Virus record (IMG/VR): IMGVR_UViG_3300032092_000001 | Direction: 5' to 3' (one strand) | Length of the DNA stretch: 64,000 nucleotides | Origin: a virus | Lineage: Duplodnaviria; Caudoviricetes | Shown here: positions 9,366 to 19,744 of the stretch, piece by piece | Layout: every line of letters starts with the position of its first letter | How positions within the stretch are numbered: the first letter of the stretch is position 1 | Notes under the pieces: generated by a model | Told to the model about the DNA's origin: nothing | Seen by the model: the letters and a program-made list of their open reading frames with translations, nothing else | The model's database searches: none | Position numbers and translations under genes: made by a program

Positions 9366-9656
9366 TTATATATAATTAACGTCGTGTGGACCCAAACCTT
9401 TACCCCATCCTTGTGGAGCAACAATGAAAATAATCTGTTTACCATCAGAGATTAATGAAACATTCCCCTTTGTATAATATTGGTAACCTGTATATTTTTC
9501 TATTAATTTATTCACCACATCTCTTTGTTTCCCTGTTAATTTATTAACATCACCCAAAACATATCCTTTCTTAATAAGAATATCATTTTGTTCCGAAATA
9601 ACCCTTTTAACTATTTTAACTAAATCCGATTCCGTTAATCTTACAACTTTTTTCAT
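9366..9656 (-). CDS. LTESDL-leader protein
   Basis: Leader present; TATTTATA at 9673-9680. Confidence 0.75.
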   Translation of the reverse strand: MKKVVRLTESDLVKIVKRVISEQNDILIKKGYVLGDVNKLTGKQRDVVNKLIEKYTGYQYYTKGNVSLISDGKQIIFIVAPQGWGKGLGPHDVNYI

Positions 9657-9924: not shown

Positions 9925-10200
9925 TTACTTTTTAGATAGTTCAAATAGTAGGAAGTCAATCTCATCCTTCTCCACATAACCTTTCACATCATCGTGGTCA
10001 GATAGTTTAATCCACTCACTTGAGTCGGTATACCATGCAGCCACTTCAAAGGTATCTATACCATCACCATATAATGTTGAACCACCGACAATAGATACAG
10101 TAATGTTGTTGGGGAGATTAAGTAATCCCTGAACACCACCCTTCACAACTCTGTGGGGTTTGAATTCTATATCCTTAAATGTTAGGGGTCTTACTTTCAT
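9925..10200 (-). CDS. hypothetical phage protein
   Basis: TATATTTG at 10206-10213; SIVGG..LYGDG..TFEVA motif. Confidence 0.7.
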   Translation of the reverse strand: MKVRPLTFKDIEFKPHRVVKGGVQGLLNLPNNITVSIVGGSTLYGDGIDTFEVAAWYTDSSEWIKLSDHDDVKGYVEKDEIDFLLFELSKK

Positions 10201-10611
10201 GGATACAAATATACAACAATATTATTCCCCCACCAAAAAAATACATACAAAAATAAATTTGTTTATATAGATTATTCTTCATATCTTTGTGATGGTGCTT
10301 TATATTTTCCCTTTGTCTTGGGGGACAACTTTATAGTATAAGGCAGGTTGGAGTATACTCGGTCCCGATGTTATCGTTACAATAGTACAAAGGTACGGTG
10401 AACTTTTTTAATATCCTATTTTTTTGTTTCATATTTTTGTTGTACCTTAGCTCTAACGTACTTCATAATGATGAGGGGATAAAGGGCTGCTGTCTGTAAG
10501 ATAGTTGGAGTGTGTACTCCACCCTGCTTAATTAAAAAATAAATAAGATTTTTCTTGTGTATAAGGAATCCCCGCCGTATATTTGTAAAACAATCAAACA
10601 CCACTACTACC

Positions 10612-11031
10612 ATGAAAATCACCCAAGATAAGAAGTCAACCAAGTTAGTTAAGAAGTTCTTACAGAAGACCAACTCCTTAATCATCAAAGATACATGGCA
10701 TGGTTTCGGTGATGTATCAATCCGTGTTGTATCAGTTGGGGAAACCGACAAATACAGTTGGAAGGACCAACAGTATGGTCGTGTGTTGAACATTGAGATA
10801 ACCATGAAGAAGACGGGTTACCACTTCAGTGAAAACAGAATCCCATCCAAGTATGCTTGGGGAGAAACTCAAATAGCTTTCTACAAAAAGAGAAAGTCCA
10901 ATGTTGAGTATAACTTCACCAAGACAATTCAGAAAACCAAAATCCCCGTGTTCTTCACAATGGCAGGAATTCCTACCCCAAGATATGGTGAGGACTTCAT
11001 GGGTAAAGTATCATTCAAATATATTGACTAA
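10612..11031 (+). CDS. basic hypothetical protein (start revised to MKITQDKK)
   Basis: TATATTTG at 10578-10585. Confidence 0.65.
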   Translation: MKITQDKKSTKLVKKFLQKTNSLIIKDTWHGFGDVSIRVVSVGETDKYSWKDQQYGRVLNIEITMKKTGYHFSENRIPSKYAWGETQIAFYKKRKSNVEYNFTKTIQKTKIPVFFTMAGIPTPRYGEDFMGKVSFKYID

Positions 11032-11032
11032 T

Positions 11033-11425
11033 ATGAAACTAAAAGATAAGTGCAACAAATACACAACCCCTGAGCTTAGAAAGATGGGGATTAAAGTTCT
11101 ATCTCTTGTTAGAAAGAAACTTGGTCATGGAAACAAACCTGTCCCCAAGTTTAAAATTAACAATGGGTTATCCCATTCATATGGTTGTTATGATTATGAC
11201 TATACCATTACAATCAACCCCTCAAATTGTGGTACCATGGAAATGTTCGTGAGAACAATCATTCATGAATATACTCACCACATACAGAAGGGGTTAAAAA
11301 GAAACTACACCTCATCCGTTAATCGTGATGGATATTATGATTCCCCCTTTGAAGTGGAAGCTAGAGGAAATGAAAAAAAGTATAAGAGTGTTATTTGGAA
11401 AGAATTTAAACAATCAGTGTCTTAA
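11033..11425 (+). CDS. zincin-like HExxH protein (start revised to MKLKDK)
   Basis: TIIHEYTHHIQ followed by PFEVEAR. Confidence 0.65.
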   Translation: MKLKDKCNKYTTPELRKMGIKVLSLVRKKLGHGNKPVPKFKINNGLSHSYGCYDYDYTITINPSNCGTMEMFVRTIIHEYTHHIQKGLKRNYTSSVNRDGYYDSPFEVEARGNEKKYKSVIWKEFKQSVS

Positions 11426-11663: not shown

Positions 11664-12458
11664 AAGGGGTAATTGTTAATAACTTTATTTGTTAAAAAAC
11701 TTGATTTTGTCAAAATGTCAGGGGAGCGTCAGATGGGGGATGGTCCCTTTCACCACTTTTAGACATATTAACTATAATAAATATCCCCCATATTGTCTAT
11801 AATATAGGTGTATTAAATTTACCACTTTTTCCCACTGACGTATATGTGAGAGGGGTTTTTGATTATATAAAAAGTGAAAAAAGTGGTCCTGTAGATAGCG
11901 TCAGAGGGGTTTTTTTTACTATATAGATATTCCAGATAAAAAAAGAGTATGTTAATAAATGAGCGTGGACAGACTTTAGTCGTTACAATCTTCAACGAAA
12001 AAAGGGATTTTATTGTGTCTTCAAGGGGGTTTTTCATATTACCCCTTTCAAATATAGACACATTATATGGACAATTATAGTGGTGGTAAAAAGTGGGACA
12101 TAATGAGTCATATAACGGATAAACCTGTAGGTTTATGTTCCCTATAAGTCACATTGTCCCTTACGTATTCCACCATTTATATATGGGGAATGAATAACAT
12201 CACCTATCATATACTCATTCATTTATACCTGTAGGTATAATACCTTTTAGTATATAGAATGATTATTCACATATGGAACTATAATGTCCCCTTATACTAT
12301 GTGTCTTTCATTAGGGGTTCTTATATATGGGGGAAATTAGGAAGTAAATAAACGAATGTACCCATTAGTGTAATGGACCGAAGGGGAATGGAACGACACG
12401 ATAGTGGAATGGGGGAGTGAGTTTATTTAGTTCGTAATTTCATTATATTTATTATCAT
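11664..12458. other. long non-coding region with paired 18-bp palindromes
   Basis: ATAAACCTGTAGGTTTAT at 12119-12136 and TTATACCTGTAGGTATAA at 12223-12240. Confidence 0.55.
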
Positions 12459-12737
12459 ATGAAATACATTATCACAGAATCACAGTTAGATACATTTTTA
12501 CTTAGGAGGTTTACAATGGATGAATTGGAATCACTTAGGGATGATTATAACTATATTATGGATGACGAAGATTTTGAAGACTCTGCCGATAGAGATGACT
12601 ACGCTTATGAACTACTTGAAAAGTTCATTGATAGACATAGAAGTGAGGAGTTTTTACAATATGATAATGACACTGAATTCTATGAAAACCGTGCCGATTA
12701 TATTAGGGCGTTACTTAAATTCTTACATTCTAATTAA
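12459..12737 (+). CDS. ITESQ-leader acidic protein
   Basis: MKYIITESQL; TATTTAT upstream. Confidence 0.7.
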   Translation: MKYIITESQLDTFLLRRFTMDELESLRDDYNYIMDDEDFEDSADRDDYAYELLEKFIDRHRSEEFLQYDNDTEFYENRADYIRALLKFLHSN

Positions 12738-12741
12738 TTAA

Positions 12742-12749
12742 TATTTATA
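12742..12749 (+). promoter_or_regulatory. phage TATTTATA promoter-like element (representative copy, probably late)
   Basis: Also at 13522, 16357, 16702 (+) and 5083, 7296, 9673, 19756, 50569, 51693, 59185, 61764 (-), 4-16 nt before ATG. Confidence 0.7.
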
Positions 12750-12753
12750 TATA

Positions 12754-13107
12754 ATGAAATACCTTATCACCGAATCACAAATTGATAGAGTAGTGTCCAT
12801 ATACTTGAATAATCAGGACTTTGTGATATATGACAACAAGAAGAAATTCAATAATTATATATATTTCTTAAACAGTGAGTCAGATAGGGAATCGCAGATT
12901 AGTGTTTATACTAACAACGCTTTTGGTGAAGTTAGGAATTGGGTGTTTGTAAATTCTGATTTGATTGAGGAATTATCTACCTTCTTCTCCATAGATAGAT
13001 TGGATTGTTTGAATATAATCAAAATGTGGGTTAATAATACTTTGGGTATTAGTGATAGTACGATTTGGGATGGTCCATATGATTACAGATTAATGGTTAA
13101 CGAATAA
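12754..13107 (+). CDS. ITESQ/DNQDF paralog family member
   Basis: MKYLITESQ..YLNNQDF...STFFS...WV. Confidence 0.8.
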   Translation: MKYLITESQIDRVVSIYLNNQDFVIYDNKKKFNNYIYFLNSESDRESQISVYTNNAFGEVRNWVFVNSDLIEELSTFFSIDRLDCLNIIKMWVNNTLGISDSTIWDGPYDYRLMVNE

Positions 13108-13517
13108 TGAAAGTAATAATCACTGAAAGTCAAGGTAAGAAAACTCTTAAACCATTATTGGCGAAATTTGGTATGCGTACTCTGTGTAAAATGACAGGTA
13201 AGTCAGTTAAAGATGTTATTAATGAAGCAGGTATTAAGGGAACTAAAGAAGATATTATCTTTCTAACAAAAACTATAATTGAGAATGACCTCTCATCCGT
13301 CTTAACATATTGTAATTATAATATCATACCCACTCAGTACTCTATGGATTTGGTTGTCTATATACCTAAGCCGGCTCCTGAAAATGTGGGAAGGTATATG
13401 TTTGACCAAGGTACAAGGAATGTGTATAGAGATGCTATCTCCGAGGCTTTATATAAATTAGGTGGCGGTTTAATTAAAGGTCATAATATTGAGGTTCATA
13501 ATACAGGTAACTGTTAA
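13107..13517 (+). CDS. ITESQ-leader protein
   Basis: MKVIITESQ; translationally coupled. Confidence 0.7.
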   Translation: MKVIITESQGKKTLKPLLAKFGMRTLCKMTGKSVKDVINEAGIKGTKEDIIFLTKTIIENDLSSVLTYCNYNIIPTQYSMDLVVYIPKPAPENVGRYMFDQGTRNVYRDAISEALYKLGGGLIKGHNIEVHNTGNC

Positions 13518-13533
13518 CTAATATTTATATATA

Positions 13534-13866
13534 GTGAAATATCTTATAACCGAATCACAGATAGACAAAGTAATCTTTAGGTACTTGGACAATCAGGACT
13601 TTATTCCAATAGAAAAGGGTGATAATATATACTTTGTAAATTCAGAAGGAGATGAATATGCTCAAATCAGATATGATAAAGATGATGGTTGGTGTTATAT
13701 ATCTTGGAAGTTAGTTAATGAAATTTATTCTTTCTTTTCTTTGGAAGAATATGATTCCGAACAAGTTATTGGTAGGTGGGTTGAGAATACCCTACAGATG
13801 AGGGTCACTGACACCGTGCCCATTTTTAATCCGGATAATCCTTCGTTGATAATACCCTCTAACTAA
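13534..13866 (+). CDS. ITESQ/DNQDF paralog family member
   Basis: GTG start; ends in a repeat-spacer-partial repeat unit. Confidence 0.8.
   Translation: MKYLITESQIDKVIFRYLDNQDFIPIEKGDNIYFVNSEGDEYAQIRYDKDDGWCYISWKLVNEIYSFFSLEEYDSEQVIGRWVENTLQMRVTDTVPIFNPDNPSLIIPSN
13780..13866 (+). repeat. CRISPR-geometry unit: 36-nt repeat, 29-nt spacer, partial repeat
   Basis: GTTGAGAATACCCTACAGATGAGGGTCACTGACACC at 13780-13815; GTTGATAATACCCTCTAACTAA from 13845. Confidence 0.7.
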
Positions 13867-14578
13867 TAGTAATAATCTTCCACTCCCCATTGTAATCTTC
13901 CACAAGACAAGTGGAGTTCTCACAAAAATCACCTGAATTCATATAGTCATTCTCTAACTTCGGATGATGAATATGTCCACACACCGCAACATCATATCCC
14001 TTCTGTTTCGTTAACCCTTTTGCGTTTTCCTCAAAATCAGATACAAAGTTAATTGCCCCTTTAACAGATTGCTTTATTGTGTTTGCCAGTGAATGATATG
14101 GTAAGTTAAACCACTTTCTTATTTTGTTGTATAGGGTATTAAACTTAATGACAATATCATATGACCATCCACCAATTACTGCTAACCATCTTGCTTCCAT
14201 TATAACGAAATCCAACACATCCCCGTGAAAACAAAAGTATGTTCTCCCATCTATTCCTTCGTGCACATATTTCCTCACAATCCTTATATTGTTTAACTTA
14301 AACGGAATGAAATCTTTTAGGAAGTCATCGTGGTTTCCCCTTATATAAATCACCTTTGTGTCCTTCTCTGACATCTTCATAAACTTCCTGAATATCTTGG
14401 TGCAATCCTTTGTCCATTTACCATTCCCCTTTAATGCCCAACCATCTATTATATCTCCGTTTAATATTAACTTATCCGCTTGGTTTTCCTCTATGAACTT
14501 TATTATCTTATCCGTTTGTGATTGTCTTGCACCCAAATGTAAATCACTCATTATGATTGTTCTGTATCTCATTTCCAA
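13859..14578 (-). CDS. UDP-2,3-diacylglucosamine hydrolase-like metallophosphoesterase
   Basis: SDLHLG, GDIID, RGNHD, FHGD, CGHIH motifs. Confidence 0.85.
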   Translation of the reverse strand: MEMRYRTIIMSDLHLGARQSQTDKIIKFIEENQADKLILNGDIIDGWALKGNGKWTKDCTKIFRKFMKMSEKDTKVIYIRGNHDDFLKDFIPFKLNNIRIVRKYVHEGIDGRTYFCFHGDVLDFVIMEARWLAVIGGWSYDIVIKFNTLYNKIRKWFNLPYHSLANTIKQSVKGAINFVSDFEENAKGLTKQKGYDVAVCGHIHHPKLENDYMNSGDFCENSTCLVEDYNGEWKIITIS

Positions 14579-15273
14579 TATGAATTATGGTTGGAAAAAT
14601 ATCCCTTGTTATTTCTGTTGAAGAATGACTGTATCATTAACTTTGTCATATACCATAATCCCTTATTCTCAAATCTTCTTGGTAATGTGAATATGGTTTT
14701 CCTATATACCTTGAACTTATTTGTCTTTATCTGCTTTGATAGTAAGTAATCCTCCGCAACCTTTGCTTCTTCATCAAATCCATTTAGTGAATTGAATGTA
14801 GATTTCCTTATTAACATAAATCCACCGAGACAGAATGGTGTAATATATCTTGTTATTCCCTGAATTAAATCAAATGTCCTAAATACATAATTGTATTTTC
14901 CATTTGTTGTTCTTACCTTTGTTGTCAGTAAATCCAACCTTTCTTTTGTCATCATATACATGCACTCTTGTAACAAGTTTGTGTCAAGTATCATCATGTC
15001 CGCATCCATAAACAATACAAACGGAGTTTCAGCTCGTTCTGCCCCGTTATTTCTTGCTTTGCTAGGTAATCCACCCTGAATGATGTCAAGATTGAAATAA
15101 TCCCTGTTTCTGTTCTCCAAATGGTATGTTGTTCCATCATCCGATGAGTCGGAAACAATAACCTTAACTCCGTCAATACCATTTTGGAAATTTAATAGTG
15201 TTATAGTTTGATTGATAGTTATCCCCTCGTTCTTACAAGGTATAACAATGGTTAATAACTTTGATAGTTCCAT
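14569..15273 (-). CDS. glycosyltransferase family 2
   Basis: IVIPCKNE, FMDAD, GGFMLIR..GFDE..AED motifs. Confidence 0.9.
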   Translation of the reverse strand: MELSKLLTIVIPCKNEGITINQTITLLNFQNGIDGVKVIVSDSSDDGTTYHLENRNRDYFNLDIIQGGLPSKARNNGAERAETPFVLFMDADMMILDTNLLQECMYMMTKERLDLLTTKVRTTNGKYNYVFRTFDLIQGITRYITPFCLGGFMLIRKSTFNSLNGFDEEAKVAEDYLLSKQIKTNKFKVYRKTIFTLPRRFENKGLWYMTKLMIQSFFNRNNKGYFSNHNSYWK

Positions 15274-15382
15274 TTATATAAGTATTGGAAGTAAAGACCA
15301 AACCATATTATCATATTCTTATGAAATTATTAACTCAATATGTATAGTTCAATTTTATACTTATCTTTGTATTTATTATCAT

Positions 15383-15700
15383 ATGAAGATTGAGAATAAA
15401 GTTAATGCAATTGTAAAACTAATTAATACATTATACTCACCTGACGAGATTAAAGTTAGAAAGAGTGAATATGATGATGAGATATTAATTGATGTTTACT
15501 TTTCTCATATTGATGATTCATATATAACCAACTCTGACTATTATGACCTTAAAAAATTAAAACAACAAAATTTTGAGGGTGAGATTAGAAGGACGATACA
15601 GGACTTCTTGAGTATTAAAACAAGCGGATTAAACCCACATACAGGTTTCTCCCCATACGAGGTTCACGGTATAACAATAGACGTAAGATTAACTAAATGA
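15383..15700 (+). CDS. hypothetical protein (start revised to MKIENKV)
   Basis: Tandem TATCTTTG (15362) and TATTTAT (15370) upstream. Confidence 0.65.
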   Translation: MKIENKVNAIVKLINTLYSPDEIKVRKSEYDDEILIDVYFSHIDDSYITNSDYYDLKKLKQQNFEGEIRRTIQDFLSIKTSGLNPHTGFSPYEVHGITIDVRLTK

Positions 15701-16026
15701 AATACCTTATAACAGAATCACAAATAGATAGAATAATCTTTAGGTATCTTGACAATCAGGACTTTATTCTTGTTGGTAATGGTCTCAGTTTATTTTTTAT
15801 TAATTCTGAGGGTGATGAATCAGCTCAAATTAGATATAATAAAGATGATGGTTGGTGTTATATAAACCACGATTTAATTAGGGAGATTACCTCCTTCTTT
15901 TCTATCAAATCATATGAAGCTGAAAAGATTATCAGTAAATGGGTTGAATATGTTTTGGAGATGGAAGTTACTAACATCGGTAAACCTGGATATGTGACCT
16001 CAAACACACTATACTATTCTATATGA
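15697..16026 (+). CDS. ITESQ/DNQDF paralog family member
   Basis: Aligns by eye with 13534..13866. Confidence 0.8.
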   Translation: MKYLITESQIDRIIFRYLDNQDFILVGNGLSLFFINSEGDESAQIRYNKDDGWCYINHDLIREITSFFSIKSYEAEKIISKWVEYVLEMEVTNIGKPGYVTSNTLYYSI

Positions 16027-16334
16027 AATACCTTATAACAGAATCACAATTTGACAAAGTAATATTTAGATACTTAGACAATCAAGATTTTATTCAGATA
16101 GAAAAAGGAAATAAAATATACTTTGTAAATTCAGAAGGGGATGAATATGCTCAAATCAGATATGATAAAGAATATGGTTGGTGTTATATACATTACAAGT
16201 TAGTTGATGAAATTTCTACCTTCTTTTCTTTGGTACGAGATGATTCTAAAGAAGTTATTGGTAGATGGGTTGAGAATACCATCCAGATGAGGGTCACTCA
16301 CACCATAATATGGGTATATATCCAGGTGGAATAG
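16023..16334 (+). CDS. ITESQ/DNQDF paralog family member
   Basis: Stop codon falls inside the spacer of the terminal unit. Confidence 0.8.
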   Translation: MKYLITESQFDKVIFRYLDNQDFIQIEKGNKIYFVNSEGDEYAQIRYDKEYGWCYIHYKLVDEISTFFSLVRDDSKEVIGRWVENTIQMRVTHTIIWVYIQVE

Positions 16335-16356
16335 GTTGAGAATACCCTCTAACTAA
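16269..16356 (+). repeat. CRISPR-geometry unit: 36-nt repeat, 30-nt spacer, partial repeat
   Basis: Repeat 16269-16304 is 33/36 identical to 13780-13815; GTTGAGAATACCCTCTAACTAA from 16335. Confidence 0.7.
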
Positions 16357-16368
16357 TATTTATATATA

Positions 16369-16701
16369 ATGAAATACCTTATAACAGAATCACAATTAGA
16401 TAAAGTAATCTTTAAATACTTAGATAATCAGGACTTCATTCAGATTGAGAAGGGTGATGGTGTATACTTTGTAAATTCAGAAGGTGATGAATATGCTCAG
16501 ATTAGATATTTTAAAAAGGATAACAAATGTGTCATATATACAGGATTAATTGATGAGGTATCTTCTTTCTTTTCTATGCAAGGTTATGATGCTAGAGAAA
16601 CTATAGGTAGATGGGTTGAGGAGACCTTAAAGGTAGATATTGATTATTGTTTGTGGGCATATAACATTAAATCTGAGTGGATGCAGATTCCGTCTAATTA
16701 A
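16369..16701 (+). CDS. ITESQ/DNQDF paralog family member
   Basis: Ends in IPSN like 13534..13866. Confidence 0.8.
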   Translation: MKYLITESQLDKVIFKYLDNQDFIQIEKGDGVYFVNSEGDEYAQIRYFKKDNKCVIYTGLIDEVSSFFSMQGYDARETIGRWVEETLKVDIDYCLWAYNIKSEWMQIPSN

Positions 16702-16714
16702 TATTTATAATAAC

Positions 16715-17071
16715 ATGAAAGTATTAGTCACCGAATCTAAATTAAAAACATTTATTAAGAACAAATTAAATATTGACTTCACAGGCCGTGTGGAGCTTGA
16801 CCCGAGCATATATAAAATACTGAATGATTTTGATTTCTATTTTACTTACGATGGTTTACGAAGAAGACAATTAGGTGATAACTATGGTCCGATGTATCTG
16901 ATAGAATTGGATGATAATCATAAGGTATTATATCAAATGAATTATAGTTCAAACCACCCATTGATTCTTGATAATAGAGGTGATGGATATGAAGAGTCCG
17001 ACTTTATGAATTTACTTGGTATCTCCGCTCTTGGGATAACATTAGAACAATTCCTTGACCTATACATATGA
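16715..17071 (+). CDS. leader protein (start revised to MKVLVTESKL)
   Basis: TATTTATA at 16702-16709. Confidence 0.7.
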   Translation: MKVLVTESKLKTFIKNKLNIDFTGRVELDPSIYKILNDFDFYFTYDGLRRRQLGDNYGPMYLIELDDNHKVLYQMNYSSNHPLILDNRGDGYEESDFMNLLGISALGITLEQFLDLYI

Positions 17072-17367
17072 AATACATTATAACAGAATCACGATTTGAT
17101 AAAGCAGTATTTAAGTATTTGGATAATCAGGACTTTATTAAGGTTAACAAAAAAGAAAACATATTCTTTCTTAATTCTTCAGATGATAAATTATCGGATG
17201 CTCAAATCGCATATGTTAAAACTGATGGTGAGTGTTACATAAAATATGAATTAATGGTAGAGATTTCTGATTTTTTTTCTATTGATGTATATGAGGTCAA
17301 TAAAATCATTGGTAGATGGTTTGAAGATACTCAACAAAGAAGAGTATCATCAATCCATTGGGTGTAA
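17068..17367 (+). CDS. ITESR/DNQDF paralog family member
   Basis: YLDNQDF...IGRWFEDT. Confidence 0.8.
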   Translation: MKYIITESRFDKAVFKYLDNQDFIKVNKKENIFFLNSSDDKLSDAQIAYVKTDGECYIKYELMVEISDFFSIDVYEVNKIIGRWFEDTQQRRVSSIHWV

Positions 17368-17379
17368 TATTTATTCTAT

Positions 17380-17751
17380 ATGAAATATATTATCACAGAA
17401 TCACAACATAAGTTAATCACCGAGCTTGAAAGAACTTGGAGAAATGTTGAGTATACTGAACAATATGAGAAACTTAAACATAAACTTGTTCCTTATTTTG
17501 AGAAGTTGGTTGACTCATATGATGAAAGTGAATTTAGAATTGGTTTATTTGATTCTGAAGGAAAACTAATGATGTTGTATATAAAACAAAGTGGTGAATT
17601 ATATTATAGTAGACACCTTGATAATATGTATGGTGACGCTTTTCCTCATCCCATTTGGCAAGTCCACGGCGATTTCATTCTATCAGATGTATTTAACATA
17701 TACTTCCCCGACTATGAAGTTAAATCAGTTAAAAGTGTAACATTCTCATGA
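17380..17751 (+). CDS. ITESQ-leader protein
   Basis: MKYIITESQH. Confidence 0.7.
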   Translation: MKYIITESQHKLITELERTWRNVEYTEQYEKLKHKLVPYFEKLVDSYDESEFRIGLFDSEGKLMMLYIKQSGELYYSRHLDNMYGDAFPHPIWQVHGDFILSDVFNIYFPDYEVKSVKSVTFS

Positions 17752-18089
17752 AATACCTAATCACCGAATCACAACGAGATAAAGCCGTATTCAAATACTT
17801 GGATAATCAAGATTTTGAAATATCTAAAATTGGTGCCAGTACATACTTTAAACACCCTGATGATGACGGGTTTGCTCAAATTAAATATGGTGGTAATCAC
17901 GCTAATAATGAATTGTGTTTTATCTATATAGATTTAATTAAAGAAATTTCTTCCTTCTTTTCTCTTAACGATTATCAATCTACCAGAGCTGTTGGACAAT
18001 GGGTTAAGAAAACCCTGAACTTGGAGGGTCAAATGTCCAACAAGATAATGCAACTCAAATCGTCATTAAAAATACCAACTGAATATTAA
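17748..18089 (+). CDS. ITESQ/DNQDF paralog family member
   Basis: YLDNQDF...VGQWVKKTL. Confidence 0.8.
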   Translation: MKYLITESQRDKAVFKYLDNQDFEISKIGASTYFKHPDDDGFAQIKYGGNHANNELCFIYIDLIKEISSFFSLNDYQSTRAVGQWVKKTLNLEGQMSNKIMQLKSSLKIPTEY

Positions 18090-18125
18090 TTTGTAGTTCC
18101 ACAATTTTTGTCGTATCTTTGGCTT

Positions 18126-18725
18126 ATGGTAACAGATAAGATAAAACAATACATATTCAAACGTCTATACAAAGAGTTAGGTAATGCGGAAATAATTCCA
18201 TACAATAATTCCATATGGTTTATTGATAGAAATGAAAGGTATTGGTATTTTGAACTTGAAAATAACGGAAATCTTTATTGGAGATATAATTATTTTACAA
18301 ATTTTTTCTCTTGGTTCTCTTTGGAACCTAATCAGTTTGAACCAATTATATCTGAATGGGTGGAAGAGGTATTAAATCATAAGGTATCCACAACAGGAAA
18401 CCAAGGCCATGATAGCGGATTCTGGGTGGAAGATGTATTAAATCATAAGGTATCTACAACCGTCCCCTACTTGACCATTGACAATGTCCAGGTGGAAAAG
18501 GTATTAAATCATAAGGTATCTACAACATGGTCAGGTCACTCAACCCAACCAAATATGGTGGAACAGGTCTTAAATCATAAGGTATCAACAACTATTCCTG
18601 TGAATTTGGGAATGGGTCAGCGGGTGAAATATGTCTTAAATCGTAAGGTAGAAACAACAAAAAGCTTTGGAGCTCCCAAGCACTTTCAGGTGGATAAGGT
18701 ATTAAATGAAAACCCCACTGAGTAG
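18126..18725 (+). CDS. protein with C-terminal 22-aa repeats (12 constant + 10 unique residues)
   Basis: Start revised: TATCTTTG at 18114-18121, ATG 4 nt later; VExVLNHKVSTT units. Confidence 0.75.
   Translation: MVTDKIKQYIFKRLYKELGNAEIIPYNNSIWFIDRNERYWYFELENNGNLYWRYNYFTNFFSWFSLEPNQFEPIISEWVEEVLNHKVSTTGNQGHDSGFWVEDVLNHKVSTTVPYLTIDNVQVEKVLNHKVSTTWSGHSTQPNMVEQVLNHKVSTTIPVNLGMGQRVKYVLNRKVETTKSFGAPKHFQVDKVLNENPTE
18359..18707 (+). repeat. in-frame CRISPR-like array: 36-nt repeat, five 30-nt unique spacers
   Basis: Repeats start at 18359, 18425, 18491, 18557, 18623, 18689 (exact 66-nt period); consensus GGTGGAAnAnGTATTAAATCATAAGGTATCnACAAC; no cas genes in the window, so not typed as CRISPR. Confidence 0.85.
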
Positions 18726-18742
18726 CGAATTCAATGGGGTTA
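18711..18742 (+). terminator. hairpin terminator
   Basis: AACCCCA...TGGGGTT at the end of the repeat gene. Confidence 0.55.
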
Positions 18743-18801
18743 ATGTAGCCTAAACTACAGCGGTCCTAAGCCCGTTTCTTTAATGTTTTTATAGGTCCAT
18801 A

Positions 18802-19215
18802 TTAATTACTCTTCCCTGTTCCTTTATGTATTAATCTTAAACAATCAGGTGATATGTTATCAAATGTAACTATATGGTGTTTGTAGTCACCACCCTCAAA
18901 ATGTCTATCTTTATACCAAGTAACACCCGCACATTCTGTATTAATTACCCATATATCATCGTCGTAAGTTGAATCAAACATTTGTTTCTTATCAAATGAA
19001 TCTGTCGCAAATATAGATGGTTTACATTCCACATCACCTCCCACATGTTGTTGGTAACAATCCCCCACATACGTTTGTAAACCTGTAAGTTCTATGTTCT
19101 CTCTCCATATAGGGTTTGATTTGTGAACTACAAATTTACCAGGTGTATATTCATCTCCTGATGGAGAATATATTTCTTCCCTTAATATTCTTCTTATTGT
19201 TTCTTGTAGGTTCAT
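18802..19215 (-). CDS. leader-bearing Tpt1/KptA-like (ADP-ribosyltransferase fold) protein
   Basis: VHKS..RENI..TGL, IFAT, DIWVINT, NISPDCL pattern; start revised to MNLQETIRRILREE. Confidence 0.5.
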   Translation of the reverse strand: MNLQETIRRILREEIYSPSGDEYTPGKFVVHKSNPIWRENIELTGLQTYVGDCYQQHVGGDVECKPSIFATDSFDKKQMFDSTYDDDIWVINTECAGVTWYKDRHFEGGDYKHHIVTFDNISPDCLRLIHKGTGKSN

Positions 19216-19216
19216 A

Positions 19217-19744
19217 TTACATACTTTTTTTAATCCTGTCTCCAACTTTTTGAAAGAACTCTAATAAATTTTCTTCAAGTTCTTCATTAAATTCTACATA
19301 GTCATCACCATCGTGTAAGTCAAATGAATGAACGTTATAGTCCTCATCAGTATACATTGTTACATAATATTCTTCACCATCAATAAAGAATTCACCAATA
19401 TGTTTATATTCAACTGGGTCTTCGTCCCACTCTTGGGTTTCGTTATAAATGAATTTTACATCATAATCATCAACAATATCATTAAATTCGTAACCTGAAT
19501 CAATACTCACAATATCTTCCAATTCGTTGTCAGTAATATCTTGTGATTTATTATGTAAATATTTTTTTTCGGCCTTGGTTAATGACTCCATTCCGAATTG
19601 ATTAATTTTATCTAAAATACGATTGGTTAATTCATCATTTTCATTGATGACCCCCATCATTGATTTTATTCTTGATATTTGTTCTTGTAGTTTCATATTA
19701 GTCTCCTCTTTAAGTATTCTTCTTATGTGTTCTTGTAGGTCCAT
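19217..19744 (-). CDS. acidic protein with two stacked leaders
   Basis: MDLQEHIRRILKEE followed by MKLQEQISRIKSMM; TATTTATA at 19756-19763. Confidence 0.7.
   Translation of the reverse strand: MDLQEHIRRILKEETNMKLQEQISRIKSMMGVINENDELTNRILDKINQFGMESLTKAEKKYLHNKSQDITDNELEDIVSIDSGYEFNDIVDDYDVKFIYNETQEWDEDPVEYKHIGEFFIDGEEYYVTMYTDEDYNVHSFDLHDGDDYVEFNEELEENLLEFFQKVGDRIKKSM

Follow-up and report, generated by a model that had tools for sequence, protein, structure and literature searches.

The window analysed here, a stretch of 64,000 nucleotides, derives from a freshwater phage whose huge genome (about 290 kb) carries a tandem multigene family with CRISPR-like arrays fused to the 3' ends of its genes. 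The host of this phage is probably a member of the Bacteroidota. Paralogs with arrays are numerous in each genome and occur across many related phages. The paralogs, repeats (class A and class B) and spacers in the relevant part of the window are listed below, with the basis for each in brackets.

12754-13107, + strand: paralog gene with a decayed unit, comprising a repeat-like segment (13030-13065), a tail (13066-13095) and a partial copy (13096-13107) (ORF, alignment)
13534-13866, + strand: paralog gene, 110 aa, with a one-unit array as its 3' end (sequence, ORF)
13780-13815, + strand: class B repeat, 36 nt, GTTGAGAATACCCTACAGATGAGGGTCACTGACACC, encoding VENTLQMRVTDT, the predicted end of the last helix and a strand (sequence, model)
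13816-13844, + strand: spacer, 29 nt, read as VPIFNPDNPS (sequence)
13845-13866, + strand: terminal partial repeat, GTTGATAATACCCTCTAACTAA, in which each of the three frames has a stop (sequence, repeat search)
15697-16026, + strand: paralog gene with a diverged repeat-like segment, WVEYVLEMEVTNI, at about 15943-15978 and no recognisable second copy (ORF, alignment)
16023-16334, + strand: paralog gene, 103 aa, whose terminal TAG is the last three bases of its own spacer (sequence, ORF)
16269-16304, + strand: class B repeat, identical to the 13780 copy at 33/36 positions (sequence)
16305-16334, + strand: spacer, 30 nt (sequence)
16335-16356, + strand: terminal partial repeat after the stop codon, untranslated (sequence, repeat search)
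16369-16701, + strand: paralog gene with a decayed unit, comprising a repeat-like segment (16615-16650), a spacer (16651-16679) and a partial copy (16680-16701, ending …IPSN*) (repeat search, alignment)
17068-17367, + strand: paralog gene in which the repeat-like segment, WFEDTQQRRVSS (17320-17355), is diverged and the tail is short (ORF, alignment)
17748-18089, + strand: paralog gene with a decayed unit, comprising a repeat-like segment (18003-18038), a spacer (18039-18064) and a partial copy (18065-18089) (sequence, alignment)
18126-18725, + strand: divergent paralog gene with a class A array (repeat search, alignment)
18359-18394, 18425-18460, 18491-18526, 18557-18592 and 18623-18658, + strand: class A repeats, with a partial copy at 18689-18712
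18395-18424, + strand: class A spacer S1, identical to bacterial DNA at 30/30 positions

The conserved C-terminal segment of the family, (W)VENTLQMRVTDT, is encoded by the 36-nt class B repeat, and alignment of the paralogs shows that the first repeat is coding in every one of them, a property that an earlier reading of the sequence (the original prediction) had missed. The original claim that conservation is not explained by protein was only half right: coding constraint acts on the first repeat, and the array in the neighbouring gene is kept open in frame. The paralog at 13534-13866 has 1781 metagenomic homologs; its AlphaFold2 model has a pLDDT of 89.6, and the predicted fold has no match in the PDB. 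As modelled, the domain of roughly 95 amino acids is a new fold, and the first repeat encodes the end of its last helix and a strand.

The class B repeats at 13780-13815 and 16269-16304 are both present with the agreement originally reported. As was also claimed, each is followed by an unrelated segment of 29 or 30 nt and then by a second copy, GTTGA(T/G)AATACCCTCTAACTAA (13845-13866 and 16335-16356). Reading frames confirm that these second copies are out of frame or beyond a stop: the copy at 13845 is one frame off and is read LIIPSN*, and that at 16335 sits behind the TAG at 16332-16334. The stops in the partial copy fall, frame by frame, in GT TGA, CTC TAA and AAC TAA, and the terminal repeat in homologs is read as LRIPSN* or VENTL*, or stops at the TGA. 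The two spacers are unrelated, although the paralogs that carry them are 86% identical in DNA. The spacer at 13816-13844 is retained in some homologs and swapped out in most, and a variant contig in run X4 has an additional repeat and a new 29-nt spacer at this position. A 24-nt core of the spacer at 16305-16334 has no exact match in IMG/VR. The degenerate pairs noted earlier at 13030/13096, 16615/16680 and 18003/18065 exist as decayed versions of the unit; the partial copy at 16680 is 70% identical to the copy at 13845. The tail at 13066-13095 is 100% identical in five related phage contigs (including L001, L006, L016 and L019), and thus this unit is fixed and no longer variable.

Class B arrays in IMG/VR relatives contain one to four full copies and a partial terminal copy, with spacers of 29, 30 or 31 nt. 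In G006, a relative with a complete genome, the first spacer has 31 nt, which makes the TGA of repeat 2 the end of the frame. Although they lie past the stop, repeats 2 and 3 are still 35/36 and 33/36 identical to repeat 1; a fourth copy is more decayed. Homologs that are 70-90% identical in the N-domain have unrelated spacers, and spacers of orthologs are not alignable by point mutation. Some two-unit homologs have the same distal spacer and different proximal ones (P0002 vs P0004, P0018 vs P0014, P0047 vs P0106). Additional units are found in relatives and in the same lakes, and unit-level mosaics occur across 19 IMG/VR stretches and within the same lakes. The arrays gain, lose and exchange whole repeat-spacer units.

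The class A array in the gene at 18126-18725, which the original prediction missed, has six copies with a period of exactly 66 nt (36 + 30). Class A spacers are 30 nt in 94/94 cases and stop-free in 94/94, compared with an expected 68% (P = 3e-16), and class A arrays are always in frame and kept open. Differences among variants of one spacer are mostly synonymous. In related phages, whole class A units are common to several and are shuffled: the window array and those of L088, L090 and L091 have the first spacer in common, the latter three also have the last, and all four differ inside. The polarity of unit gain is therefore not strict. In the predicted model of this gene product the N-domain has a pLDDT of about 80 and the array part 23-30, and the array-encoded part is predicted to be disordered.

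Some of these features would be expected of ordinary protein tandem repeats, in which a 22-residue motif combines a conserved half with a fast half, the copies are kept alike by gene conversion and diversifying selection, and the likeness to CRISPR is coincidental. The in-frame, stop-free class A arrays, the synonymous differences among spacer variants, the third codon positions that vary most within the repeats, and the position of repeat 1 within a confidently predicted domain are all consistent with this explanation. Nevertheless, we consider it very unlikely. Class B spacer lengths are not all multiples of three, full repeats survive past a stop codon in G006, and the terminal repeat is conserved as DNA yet is read in two frames or not at all. 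The predicted disorder of the array-encoded part and the unalignable spacers of paralogs that are nearly alike also argue against it, as does the origin of the spacers.

Spacers do not have the composition of phage DNA. Their GC content is 42.4% in class A and 40.7% in class B, compared with 30-33% for the phages, and their third-codon-position GC is 39%, compared with 18-29% in most of the phage genes sampled and 35% in one. Random 30-mers that are free of stops have a GC content of 31.7% when drawn from phage and 44.9% when drawn from the host lineage. The base composition of the spacers fits a bacterium of roughly 42% GC and not the phage. Furthermore, S1 matches 30/30 within an envC/M23-like gene on contigs L087 and L089 (GC 42%), in the same sense as the bacterial mRNA. 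The boundaries of the match are exact, the flanks are without homology, and there are no repeats nearby on these contigs. The protospacer lies in a TPR / DUF4292 / M23-peptidase gene cluster of a Bacteroidota chromosome, and its bacterial flanks are present in run X5 as well; S1 matches a 99%-identical allele at 28/30 positions and a 93% allele at 26/30. S1 is the one spacer with a protospacer found, and 169 spacers had no match in a further roughly 40 kb of host-lineage scaffold, in 706 kb of related phage DNA or in the INPHARED phage collection. Together with the spacer lengths, the protospacer already contradicts the tandem-repeat explanation.

The proposed likeness to type VI-B arrays is upheld by the 36-nt repeats, the 29-31 nt spacers, the identity to real CRISPR repeats and the hits of a covariance model. 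Both repeat classes align without gaps to natural Flavobacteriaceae Cas13b-type repeats at 25-27/36 positions, and shuffled sequences reach at most 22; identity to the natural repeats found does not exceed 75%, a moderate similarity. The likeness in sequence is on the coding strand for class A and on the opposite strand for class B. The 13780 repeat matches the reverse complement of natural Flavobacteriaceae repeats at 24/36 positions, and the 16269 repeat matches the reverse complement of the G728 mini-array repeat at 27/36, with the first 17 nt identical. A covariance model made solely from natural repeats picks out the phage repeats (E-values of 0.04-2.5), with hits on the + strand at 18491-18526 and 18557-18592. 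Natural arrays of Flavobacterium columnare, F. covae and F. sp. J27 have 29-31 nt spacers and a terminal repeat that is degenerate in its 3' half. These comparisons indicate that the phage repeats are related, as judged by sequence, to natural Flavobacteriaceae Cas13b-type repeats.

The repeats fold poorly. The ACCCT/AGGGT stem reported at 13780 is present but is not conserved, all five pairs being kept in 14/38 distinct repeat variants, and the folding of phage repeats (-1.4 to -6.6 kcal/mol, z of +0.5 to -1.5) is no different from that of shuffles. In contrast, natural repeats fold at about -11 kcal/mol (z of -2.7 to -2.9). This bears on whether the units act as RNA, with a host effector (Cas13b or other) processing the transcripts into guides or decoys, such that the effector is soaked up (an RNA anti-CRISPR) or aimed at targets in the host or in rival phages. 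The 36 + 30 geometry, the GTTG/ACAAC-like ends and the likeness to Cas13b-associated repeats favor such a role, and the coding-strand orientation of class A is that of natural crRNA. Arrays of huge phages may use host Cas proteins (PMC7162821), and the published survey of RNA anti-CRISPRs (Racrs), which contains no type VI case, masked ORFs and so would have missed elements embedded in them (PMC10651486). We nonetheless think a role as RNA unlikely. Besides the missing hairpin, identity among the repeats of an array falls to 76%, most class B variants have a broken stem, and there is selection for translation through the arrays. S1 has the sense of the bacterial mRNA, and thus a transcript-sense guide would not pair with that mRNA. 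Cas13b is also rare, being present in 2/401 Bacteroidia genomes sampled; neither this count nor the folding supports the decoy or RNA anti-CRISPR suggested originally.

The most likely reading is that these are orphan phage-borne CRISPR-type arrays that are extended by host Cas1-Cas2 and translated through. We assign a probability of about 0.65 to the units being genuine CRISPR-type arrays on phage gene ends, with host Cas1-Cas2 as the proposed inserter. Among the options raised originally, a substrate for spacer insertion fits best, because of the cassette replacement, the extra units, the bacterial composition and the exact 30/30 spacer match. During infection, host Cas1-Cas2 would take the phage gene end for a leader-repeat junction, and the integrase would insert a prespacer, mostly host DNA, and duplicate the repeat. 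Captured 29-31-nt spacers, more repeat copies and a shortened terminal repeat would then follow the first coding repeat. The terminal repeat would halt translation in all three frames, near the start of the next gene, so that a spacer of any length could be tolerated in a single unit. In long arrays only stop-free 30-nt spacers would survive, thereby allowing ribosomes to read on to the overlapping next gene. In F. columnare, Cas13b arrays are filled in trans by a type II-C module, and the 30-bp spacers that the VI-B array acquires via the II-C Cas1 come in about equal parts from the phage and the host genome (Hoikkala et al. 2021, PMC8092290).

Searches of the relative genome G006, which is 100% complete, and of other relatives, three to four for each family, found no Cas1, Cas2, Cas13b or reverse transcriptase (RVT). 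The phage could instead own a diversity generator unrelated to Cas1, in which an integrase or template-switching enzyme of an unrecognised kind would copy stretches of host DNA, each about 30 nt long, into place between duplicated 36-nt sites. Arrays at many paralogs in many related phages, without cas genes, are consistent with this, as are class A arrays held open, which fits use of the product, and a large share of the phage proteome is without known function. We regard such a generator as quite unlikely, since there is no candidate enzyme, RVT, Cas1 and Cas2 being absent from the relatives searched, and since the geometry and repeats match a Flavobacteriaceae CRISPR family, a match for which a system of the phage's own would have no need. 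Spacer lengths also vary over a range like that of natural arrays.

Several known systems resemble the host-extended arrays proposed here. Huge phages carry compact arrays without Cas1, Cas2 or Cas4, some with host-matching spacers (Al-Shayeb et al. 2020, PMC7162821). The present phage is likewise large (about 290 kb), its arrays have 1-9 repeats and lack Cas1, Cas2, Cas4 and an effector, the likely host group has related repeats, and a bacterial chromosome from the same habitat contains a match to at least one spacer. However, the present arrays are within protein genes and not in non-coding DNA, the first repeat contributes to the coding of a (predicted) folded domain, each genome has many arrays, with one to each tandem paralog, and the long arrays are translatable, with degenerate repeats that form no stable hairpin. 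Flavobacteriaceae type VI-B arrays (PMC8092290) have in common with them the 36-nt repeats (25-27/36 identity), spacers of 29-31 nt that are mostly 30, GTTG…ACAAC-type ends, a degenerate 3' half of the terminal repeat and frequent capture of host-chromosome spacers. In contrast, the phage has no cas13b nearby or anywhere in the complete relative genome, its arrays have neither an AT-rich non-coding leader nor a stable repeat hairpin, and each repeat class has one end that is GGTG/CACC and not GTTG/CAAC.

RNA anti-CRISPRs are also repeat-like sequences in viruses without cas genes, and several paralogs here have a single full repeat. Known Racrs are intergenic, downstream of a promoter, at least 90% identical to the host repeat and without spacers, and no type VI Racr is known (Camara-Wilpert et al. 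2023, PMC10651486). The present units, in contrast, are inside ORFs, have spacers, are at most 75% identical to the natural repeats found and fold poorly. Ectopic Cas1-Cas2 integration, in which a leader-repeat-like site outside a canonical array gives rise to a new unit, would be the same as the origin proposed here. Known cases of such integration are rare and lie in a bacterium's own genome or plasmids, whereas here a phage lineage has multiplied such sites and keeps them conserved.

We can only speculate about function. Perhaps the arrays act as a sink, drawing spacer acquisition by the host away from the array of the host itself, a possibility to which we give somewhat more weight than to a tolerated by-product. 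It is more doubtful that they are a source of variable protein tails, and equally doubtful that they supply guide or decoy RNAs for a host effector. Among IMG/VR class B copies, 29-nt terminal spacers are the commonest (about 11/19), and the LRIP-type tail, the product of 29-nt spacing, is present in about two thirds of the 120 closest homologs. This excess may reflect selection on the tail or some process that is not free acquisition.

The repeats of the window lie in a row of small genes arranged in tandem (12459-18725, + strand), nearly all of which start with MKY(L/I)ITESQ. Seven of these genes (12754, 13534, 15697, 16023, 16369, 17068 and 17748) form one family with an eighth, more divergent member at 18126-18725, which is the exception to the common start and begins with MVTDK. 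In an alignment, the family layout is an N-terminal part of about 85 amino acids followed by the motif W-V-E-x-x-L-x-x-x-V-x-x-T. There are two classes of repeat.

13780-13815, + strand: class B repeat, 36 nt, with a partial copy at 13845
16269-16304, + strand: class B repeat, 36 nt, with a partial copy at 16335
18126-18725, + strand: gene with the class A array, in which GGTGGAAGAGGTATTAAATCATAAGGTATCCACAAC occurs five times in full and once truncated, at a spacing of exactly 66 nt (36 + 30)
18395-18424, + strand: first spacer of the class A array (S1)

The family is large: freshwater metagenomes contain at least 1781 homologs of the 13534 protein, none of them named. The paralogs matched no PHROGs or Pfam family, and the region had no blastn match among the INPHARED phages. 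The AlphaFold2 model of the 13534 protein has a pLDDT of 89.6, and in it the class B repeat corresponds to the end of a helix (residues 72-87) and a strand (93-97). A fold search with the N-terminal domain found no match in the PDB and, in BFVD, only uncharacterised proteins of uncultured phages. A search for related loci with the array protein also found none; the DNA pattern of the class A repeat succeeded instead. The phage of the window is large, has 33% GC, and encodes an RNA ligase, a thymidylate synthase and a PurZ-like enzyme; the complete genome of a relative (G006) is 293,850 bp. Small unrelated proteins encoded at 12459, 13107, 16715 and 17380 have an N-terminal tag, MK(Y/V)(I/L)(I/V)TES, in common with the family, and the upstream DNA TAATATTTATATATAATG is likewise common to several of the tagged small genes and the family (12459-17751). 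Thus, the starts of these genes, besides their ends, are kept alike at the DNA level.

The original prediction described the class B repeats as parts of solitary repeat-spacer-repeat units at the 3' ends of paralogs, and both units are present as described. The two repeats are identical at 33 of 36 bases, and each is followed by a segment of 29 or 30 nt, the two being mutually unrelated, and then by GTTGA(T/G)AATACCCTCTAACTAA. The partial copy at 13845 is read one frame off, as LIIPSN*, and that at 16335 lies after the stop codon. The full repeats are coding, since at both sites they specify exactly the family motif (W)VENT(L/I)QMRVT(D/H)T. Similar units are found in 28 IMG/VR stretches that match the class B pattern, where arrays consist of one to four full repeats and a truncated terminal copy. 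Spacers, including internal ones, are 29, 30 or 31 nt long, and after a 29- or 31-nt spacer the reading frame ends in the next repeat. Homologous proteins have WVENTLQMRVT(D/N)T, about 10 unrelated residues, and one of three endings: an LRIPSN*-like ending, where a 29-nt spacer puts the terminal repeat in frame +1; VENTL*, where a 30-nt spacer leaves it in frame 0; or an earlier stop. Homologs that are about 22 amino acids longer have a second full unit. The commonest form combines a 29-nt spacer with the frame +1 (LRIP-type) tail, and this prevalence suggests some selection on the tail.

The class B repeats are also conserved where they are not read as protein. The terminal partial repeat retains the first 14 nt of the repeat and has a stop in all three frames, and its DNA sequence is kept in either frame (0 or +1) and also where it is untranslated. 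In G006, the first spacer is 31 nt and the TGA within repeat 2 ends the frame, so that three more repeats and the terminal copy are untranslated; untranslated repeats 2 and 3 are identical to repeat 1 at 35 and 33 of 36 bases, respectively.

Class A arrays follow a stricter rule. The class A pattern was found in 19 IMG/VR stretches, always as arrays of 3-9 units behind the same kind of N-terminal domain, with up to four array genes in a row, and such tandem genes have overlapping reading frames. All 94 class A spacers with a repeat on either side have a length of 30 nt and are stop-free in the frame of the gene, compared to an expectation of 68% stop-free for random bacterial 30-mers (P = 3e-16). 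In the other five frames, 19-54 of 85 spacers contain a stop. Different versions of the same spacer are set apart mostly by synonymous changes, and the repeats vary most at third codon positions. Judging from their reading frames, class A arrays are translated throughout. In the protein model, the array part has a pLDDT of 23-30 (disordered) and the N-terminal domain, including the first repeat, about 80. A structural tandem repeat would be one reading of such a protein, and the class A units are in frame, but class B units shift the frame and the array part is disordered. The alternation of conserved and variable sequence with a period of 22 amino acids also suggested a RiPP-like precursor with multiple cores; this reading was dropped because of the 29-31-nt spacers, the untranslated repeats and a protospacer described below.

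In several respects the units behave as CRISPR arrays. A constant 36-nt repeat alternates with unique spacers of near-constant length (30 nt in class A, 29-31 nt in class B), the terminal repeat is degenerate, and decay runs one way: identity of the class A repeats drops from 100% to 76% in the 3' direction, and repeats R1-R4 of G006 decay in the same direction. Related contigs have some class A spacers in common and differ by whole units (for example, with spacers numbered, 0-1-2-3-4-5, 71-2-3-4-5 and 1-47-38-39-40-4-5). Two-unit homologs share the distal unit and differ at the gene-proximal one, and units at the trailer end are conserved. Any polarity of unit gain at the leader end is not strict; the first spacer is common to the window and three related contigs (L088, L090 and L091), and the arrays differ inside. 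Contigs from the same lakes have extra or different units at the same sites, for example a repeat and a new 29-nt spacer between 13815 and 13780, or several new 30-nt spacers between class A repeats. Whereas a generic CRISPR array occupies a non-coding site next to an AT-rich leader, these arrays start inside an open reading frame.

Spacers are exchanged as blocks. The identity between paralogs 13534 and 16023 is 86% over 281 nt, yet their spacers cannot be aligned, and homologs that are 70-90% identical in protein have unrelated spacers. Thus, spacers are replaced as cassettes and not mutated. The original prediction would have been undermined had orthologs carried spacers alignable by ordinary point mutation, and those of close homologs are unrelated. 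We also considered a diversity-generating retroelement and rejected it. No RVT_1 domain was found in four relative genomes, and the spacers are mutually unrelated, not adenine-mutated copies.

Both the composition of the spacers and one protospacer indicate that spacers were captured from bacteria. Spacer GC is 42.4% in class A and 40.7% in class B, with 39% at third positions. Phage loci have 30-36% GC, stop-free random phage 30-mers average 31.7%, and third-position GC of the phage genes sampled is 18-29% in six of seven and 35% in the seventh. Contigs of the host lineage, at 41.5-44.5% GC, match the spacers. A single spacer was scanned against metagenomes, with the 24-nt core of S1 as the query, and a protospacer was found (1/1). 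The scan recovered three phage arrays and two repeat-free bacterial contigs, L087 and L089 (both 42% GC), on which the full 30 nt of S1 lie inside a gene (30/30). This envC/M23-peptidase homolog stands in a cluster with the gene order TPR protein, DUF4292, M23 peptidase. Its closest named relatives are in Bacteroidota MAGs, and other chromosomal genes, among them SprA, PBP, UvrC and IleRS, are present on longer contigs of this lineage. S1 matches at 28/30 in an allele that is 99% identical in protein and at 26/30 in a 93% allele; it was thus taken from a native gene in the version of one particular strain. The flanks of the protospacer have nothing in common with the repeat, and the bacterial flanks recur as loose ends in sequencing run X5. 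SprA (type IX secretion, gliding) is carried by the S1 donor lineage (L096, L098, L099; ENA ERZ19570703 scaffold_37, 69.5-109.4 kb), which fits a Bacteroidota host.

Other searches for the origin of spacers gave no further source. Comparison of 169 spacers with about 40 kb of a host-lineage scaffold yielded only a 15-nt chance match (18/29 overall), metagenome reads searched with the array alone returned the S1 protospacer again and no other, and no close envC homolog was found in 401 Flavobacteriales genomes. As for an origin in the phage itself, no match was found outside arrays in 706 kb of related phage DNA, including G006. Matches to known phages were at chance level, and the cores of three window spacers had no match in IMG/VR. 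The single protospacer belongs to class A, just outside the region 13780-18089 that had been singled out. The case for class B rests on spacer lengths, cassette replacement, composition and the gain of units.

The phage repeats bear a moderate resemblance to those of natural Cas13b (type VI-B) arrays. The Flavobacterium columnare CRISPR-2 repeat is GTTGGGAAAGCCCTTATTTTGAAGGGTATCTACAAC, with 30-bp spacers (PMC5395568). The natural arrays used for comparison are those of F. columnare, F. covae, F. sp. J27 and three further Flavobacteriaceae genomes; their spacers are 29-31 nt long, the terminal repeat retains its 5' part, and intact Cas13b (NF038190) is present in the array locus of F. columnare, F. 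sp. J27 and genomes G442, G662 and G161. The phage arrays have the type VI-B geometry of a 36-nt repeat and a 30-nt spacer. In the comparison with known repeats that the original prediction proposed, ungapped identity is 27/36 for class B and 25/36 for class A, with a maximum of 22 in 200 shuffles. The class B value is against the reverse complement of the Cas13b-adjacent repeat of G662 and of a mini-array repeat of G728, another Flavobacteriaceae genome. A covariance model built from five natural repeats only, and run over 286 kb of phage and control loci, gave 50 matches at E <= 10, almost all of them array repeats. Class A matched on the coding strand (best 22.3 bits, E = 0.043) and class B on the opposite strand (15-19 bits). 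Copies of the window score about 16.7 bits (E about 1). The two classes thus resemble natural repeats in opposite orientations, for which the near-palindromic ends of the repeats may be the explanation.

In F. covae AL-02-36 (G008, C1:3184982-3188564), an array that looks intact is accompanied by a cas13b gene that fits the family model only as six pieces; stop codons interrupt four of them, and the gene looks like a pseudogene. In F. sp. J27 (L021, reverse strand, about 1921-2103 and 2697-2881), an insertion of about 80 nt, near-identical at several array sites, splits some repeats of the Cas13b array between the first ~20 and last ~19 bases.

In their predicted folding, the phage repeats differ from natural ones. 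There is no stable hairpin closed by paired GTTG/CAAC ends; predicted folding energies are -1.4 to -6.6 kcal/mol (z of +0.5 to -1.5) for phage repeats and about -11 kcal/mol (z of -2.7 to -2.9) for natural repeats. The ACCCT/AGGGT stem that had been noted at 13780 has its five pairs intact in only 14 of 38 class B variants. A conserved, covarying hairpin was rejected. Pair 13-23 is C·A in 17 of the 38 variants, T-A in 8 and C-G in 7, indicating some compensation and no maintained stem. A permissive Rfam scan of 12000-19500, including 18711-18774 after the array, found no CRISPR-DR, twister, other ribozyme or credible family. These folding data speak against the earlier suggestion of RNA decoys. 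RNA anti-CRISPRs (Racrs) are solitary intergenic repeats that are at least 90% identical to a host repeat and are expressed as small RNAs; here, in contrast, the units are inside open reading frames and have spacers, and their identity to the natural repeats found does not exceed 75%.

The phages also appear to lack Cas proteins. No Cas13b is adjacent to the arrays or present in G006 (100% complete) or four other relatives, and no open reading frame of the window exceeds 620 amino acids. Searches for Cas1, Cas2, Cas13b and reverse transcriptase found none in G006 and the three or four other relatives searched per family. Cas13b is rare, being present in 2 of 401 Bacteroidia genomes sampled.

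What has to be explained is that pieces of foreign DNA of about 30 nt are inserted precisely, that a 36-nt site is duplicated in the process, and that lengths vary by ±1 nt. CRISPR spacer integration is the only process known to us that could be named for it. We suspect that Cas1-Cas2 of the host integrates spacers into the ends of these phage genes. Because the phage has no integrase of that kind, the host would be its most economical source. There are precedents for parts of this scheme. The Cas13b array of F. columnare receives its spacers in trans through the type II-C Cas1, and these, mostly 30 bp, come about evenly from phage and host genomes (PMC8092290). Huge phages carry compact arrays without acquisition genes, and some of their spacers match hosts (PMC7162821).

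The two classes could tolerate such insertions in different ways. The three-frame stop of the terminal repeat is within about 20 nt of the start of the next gene, and single units might thereby accept a spacer of any length. For class A arrays, general knowledge of coupled translation suggests an explanation. There, the 30-nt stop-free rule could reflect read-through to the next start, or the avoidance of a loss of downstream expression, and this explanation needs no role for the peptide.

Candidate benefits to the phage are a sink for host adaptation, variable protein tails or guide RNAs, or the arrays could be a tolerated by-product. The boldest reading is that the ends of this gene family are baits for the host CRISPR integrase, acting as an acquisition sink (anti-adaptation) or providing host-derived random C-terminal peptides that diversify phage proteins. 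We hold it tentatively, at a probability of roughly 30%.

Orphan arrays of huge phages are a known kind of element, but the location is unusual here: the end of a protein gene serves as the first repeat, and each paralog has one array. In the literature searched, we found no description of arrays that share the reading frame of a multigene family and through which ribosomes read. A survey of solitary repeats masked predicted open reading frames, treated intragenic hits as probable false positives and reported no type VI case (PMC10651486), so arrays of the present kind would have been missed by it.

If host Cas1-Cas2 fills these sites, the spacers record bacteria that a phage was inside, and hosts among the uncultured freshwater Bacteroidota could then be predicted starting from the phage. 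The arrays also allow one to study whether the adaptation stage of CRISPR immunity is subject to interference by phages or is exploited by them; to our knowledge, there is little evidence of such interference. They are also an example of foreign DNA that is captured and turned into protein sequence.

The closest natural relative of the class B repeat of the window is the mini-array repeat of G728, the first 17 nt of which (as reverse complement) are the first 17 of the 16269 repeat. Contig 8 of this genome (L086, 26000-45000) has four mini-arrays, at 9605, 9982, 11392 and 12236, each of which has two or three Cas13b-like repeats (GTTGGGAACGACCACWTTTTGGATGGTATTCTCAAC), spacers of 30 nt, and a leader of 60 nt that is identical among them. 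No Cas13b was found in the G728 genome. The neighbourhood contains Fic, DUF2786 and DUF7168 genes and has the look of a mobile element. The mini-arrays surround a 390-amino-acid open reading frame (10145-11317) with a weak match to TnpB (OrfB_IS605), and together they may be a small type V-like system.
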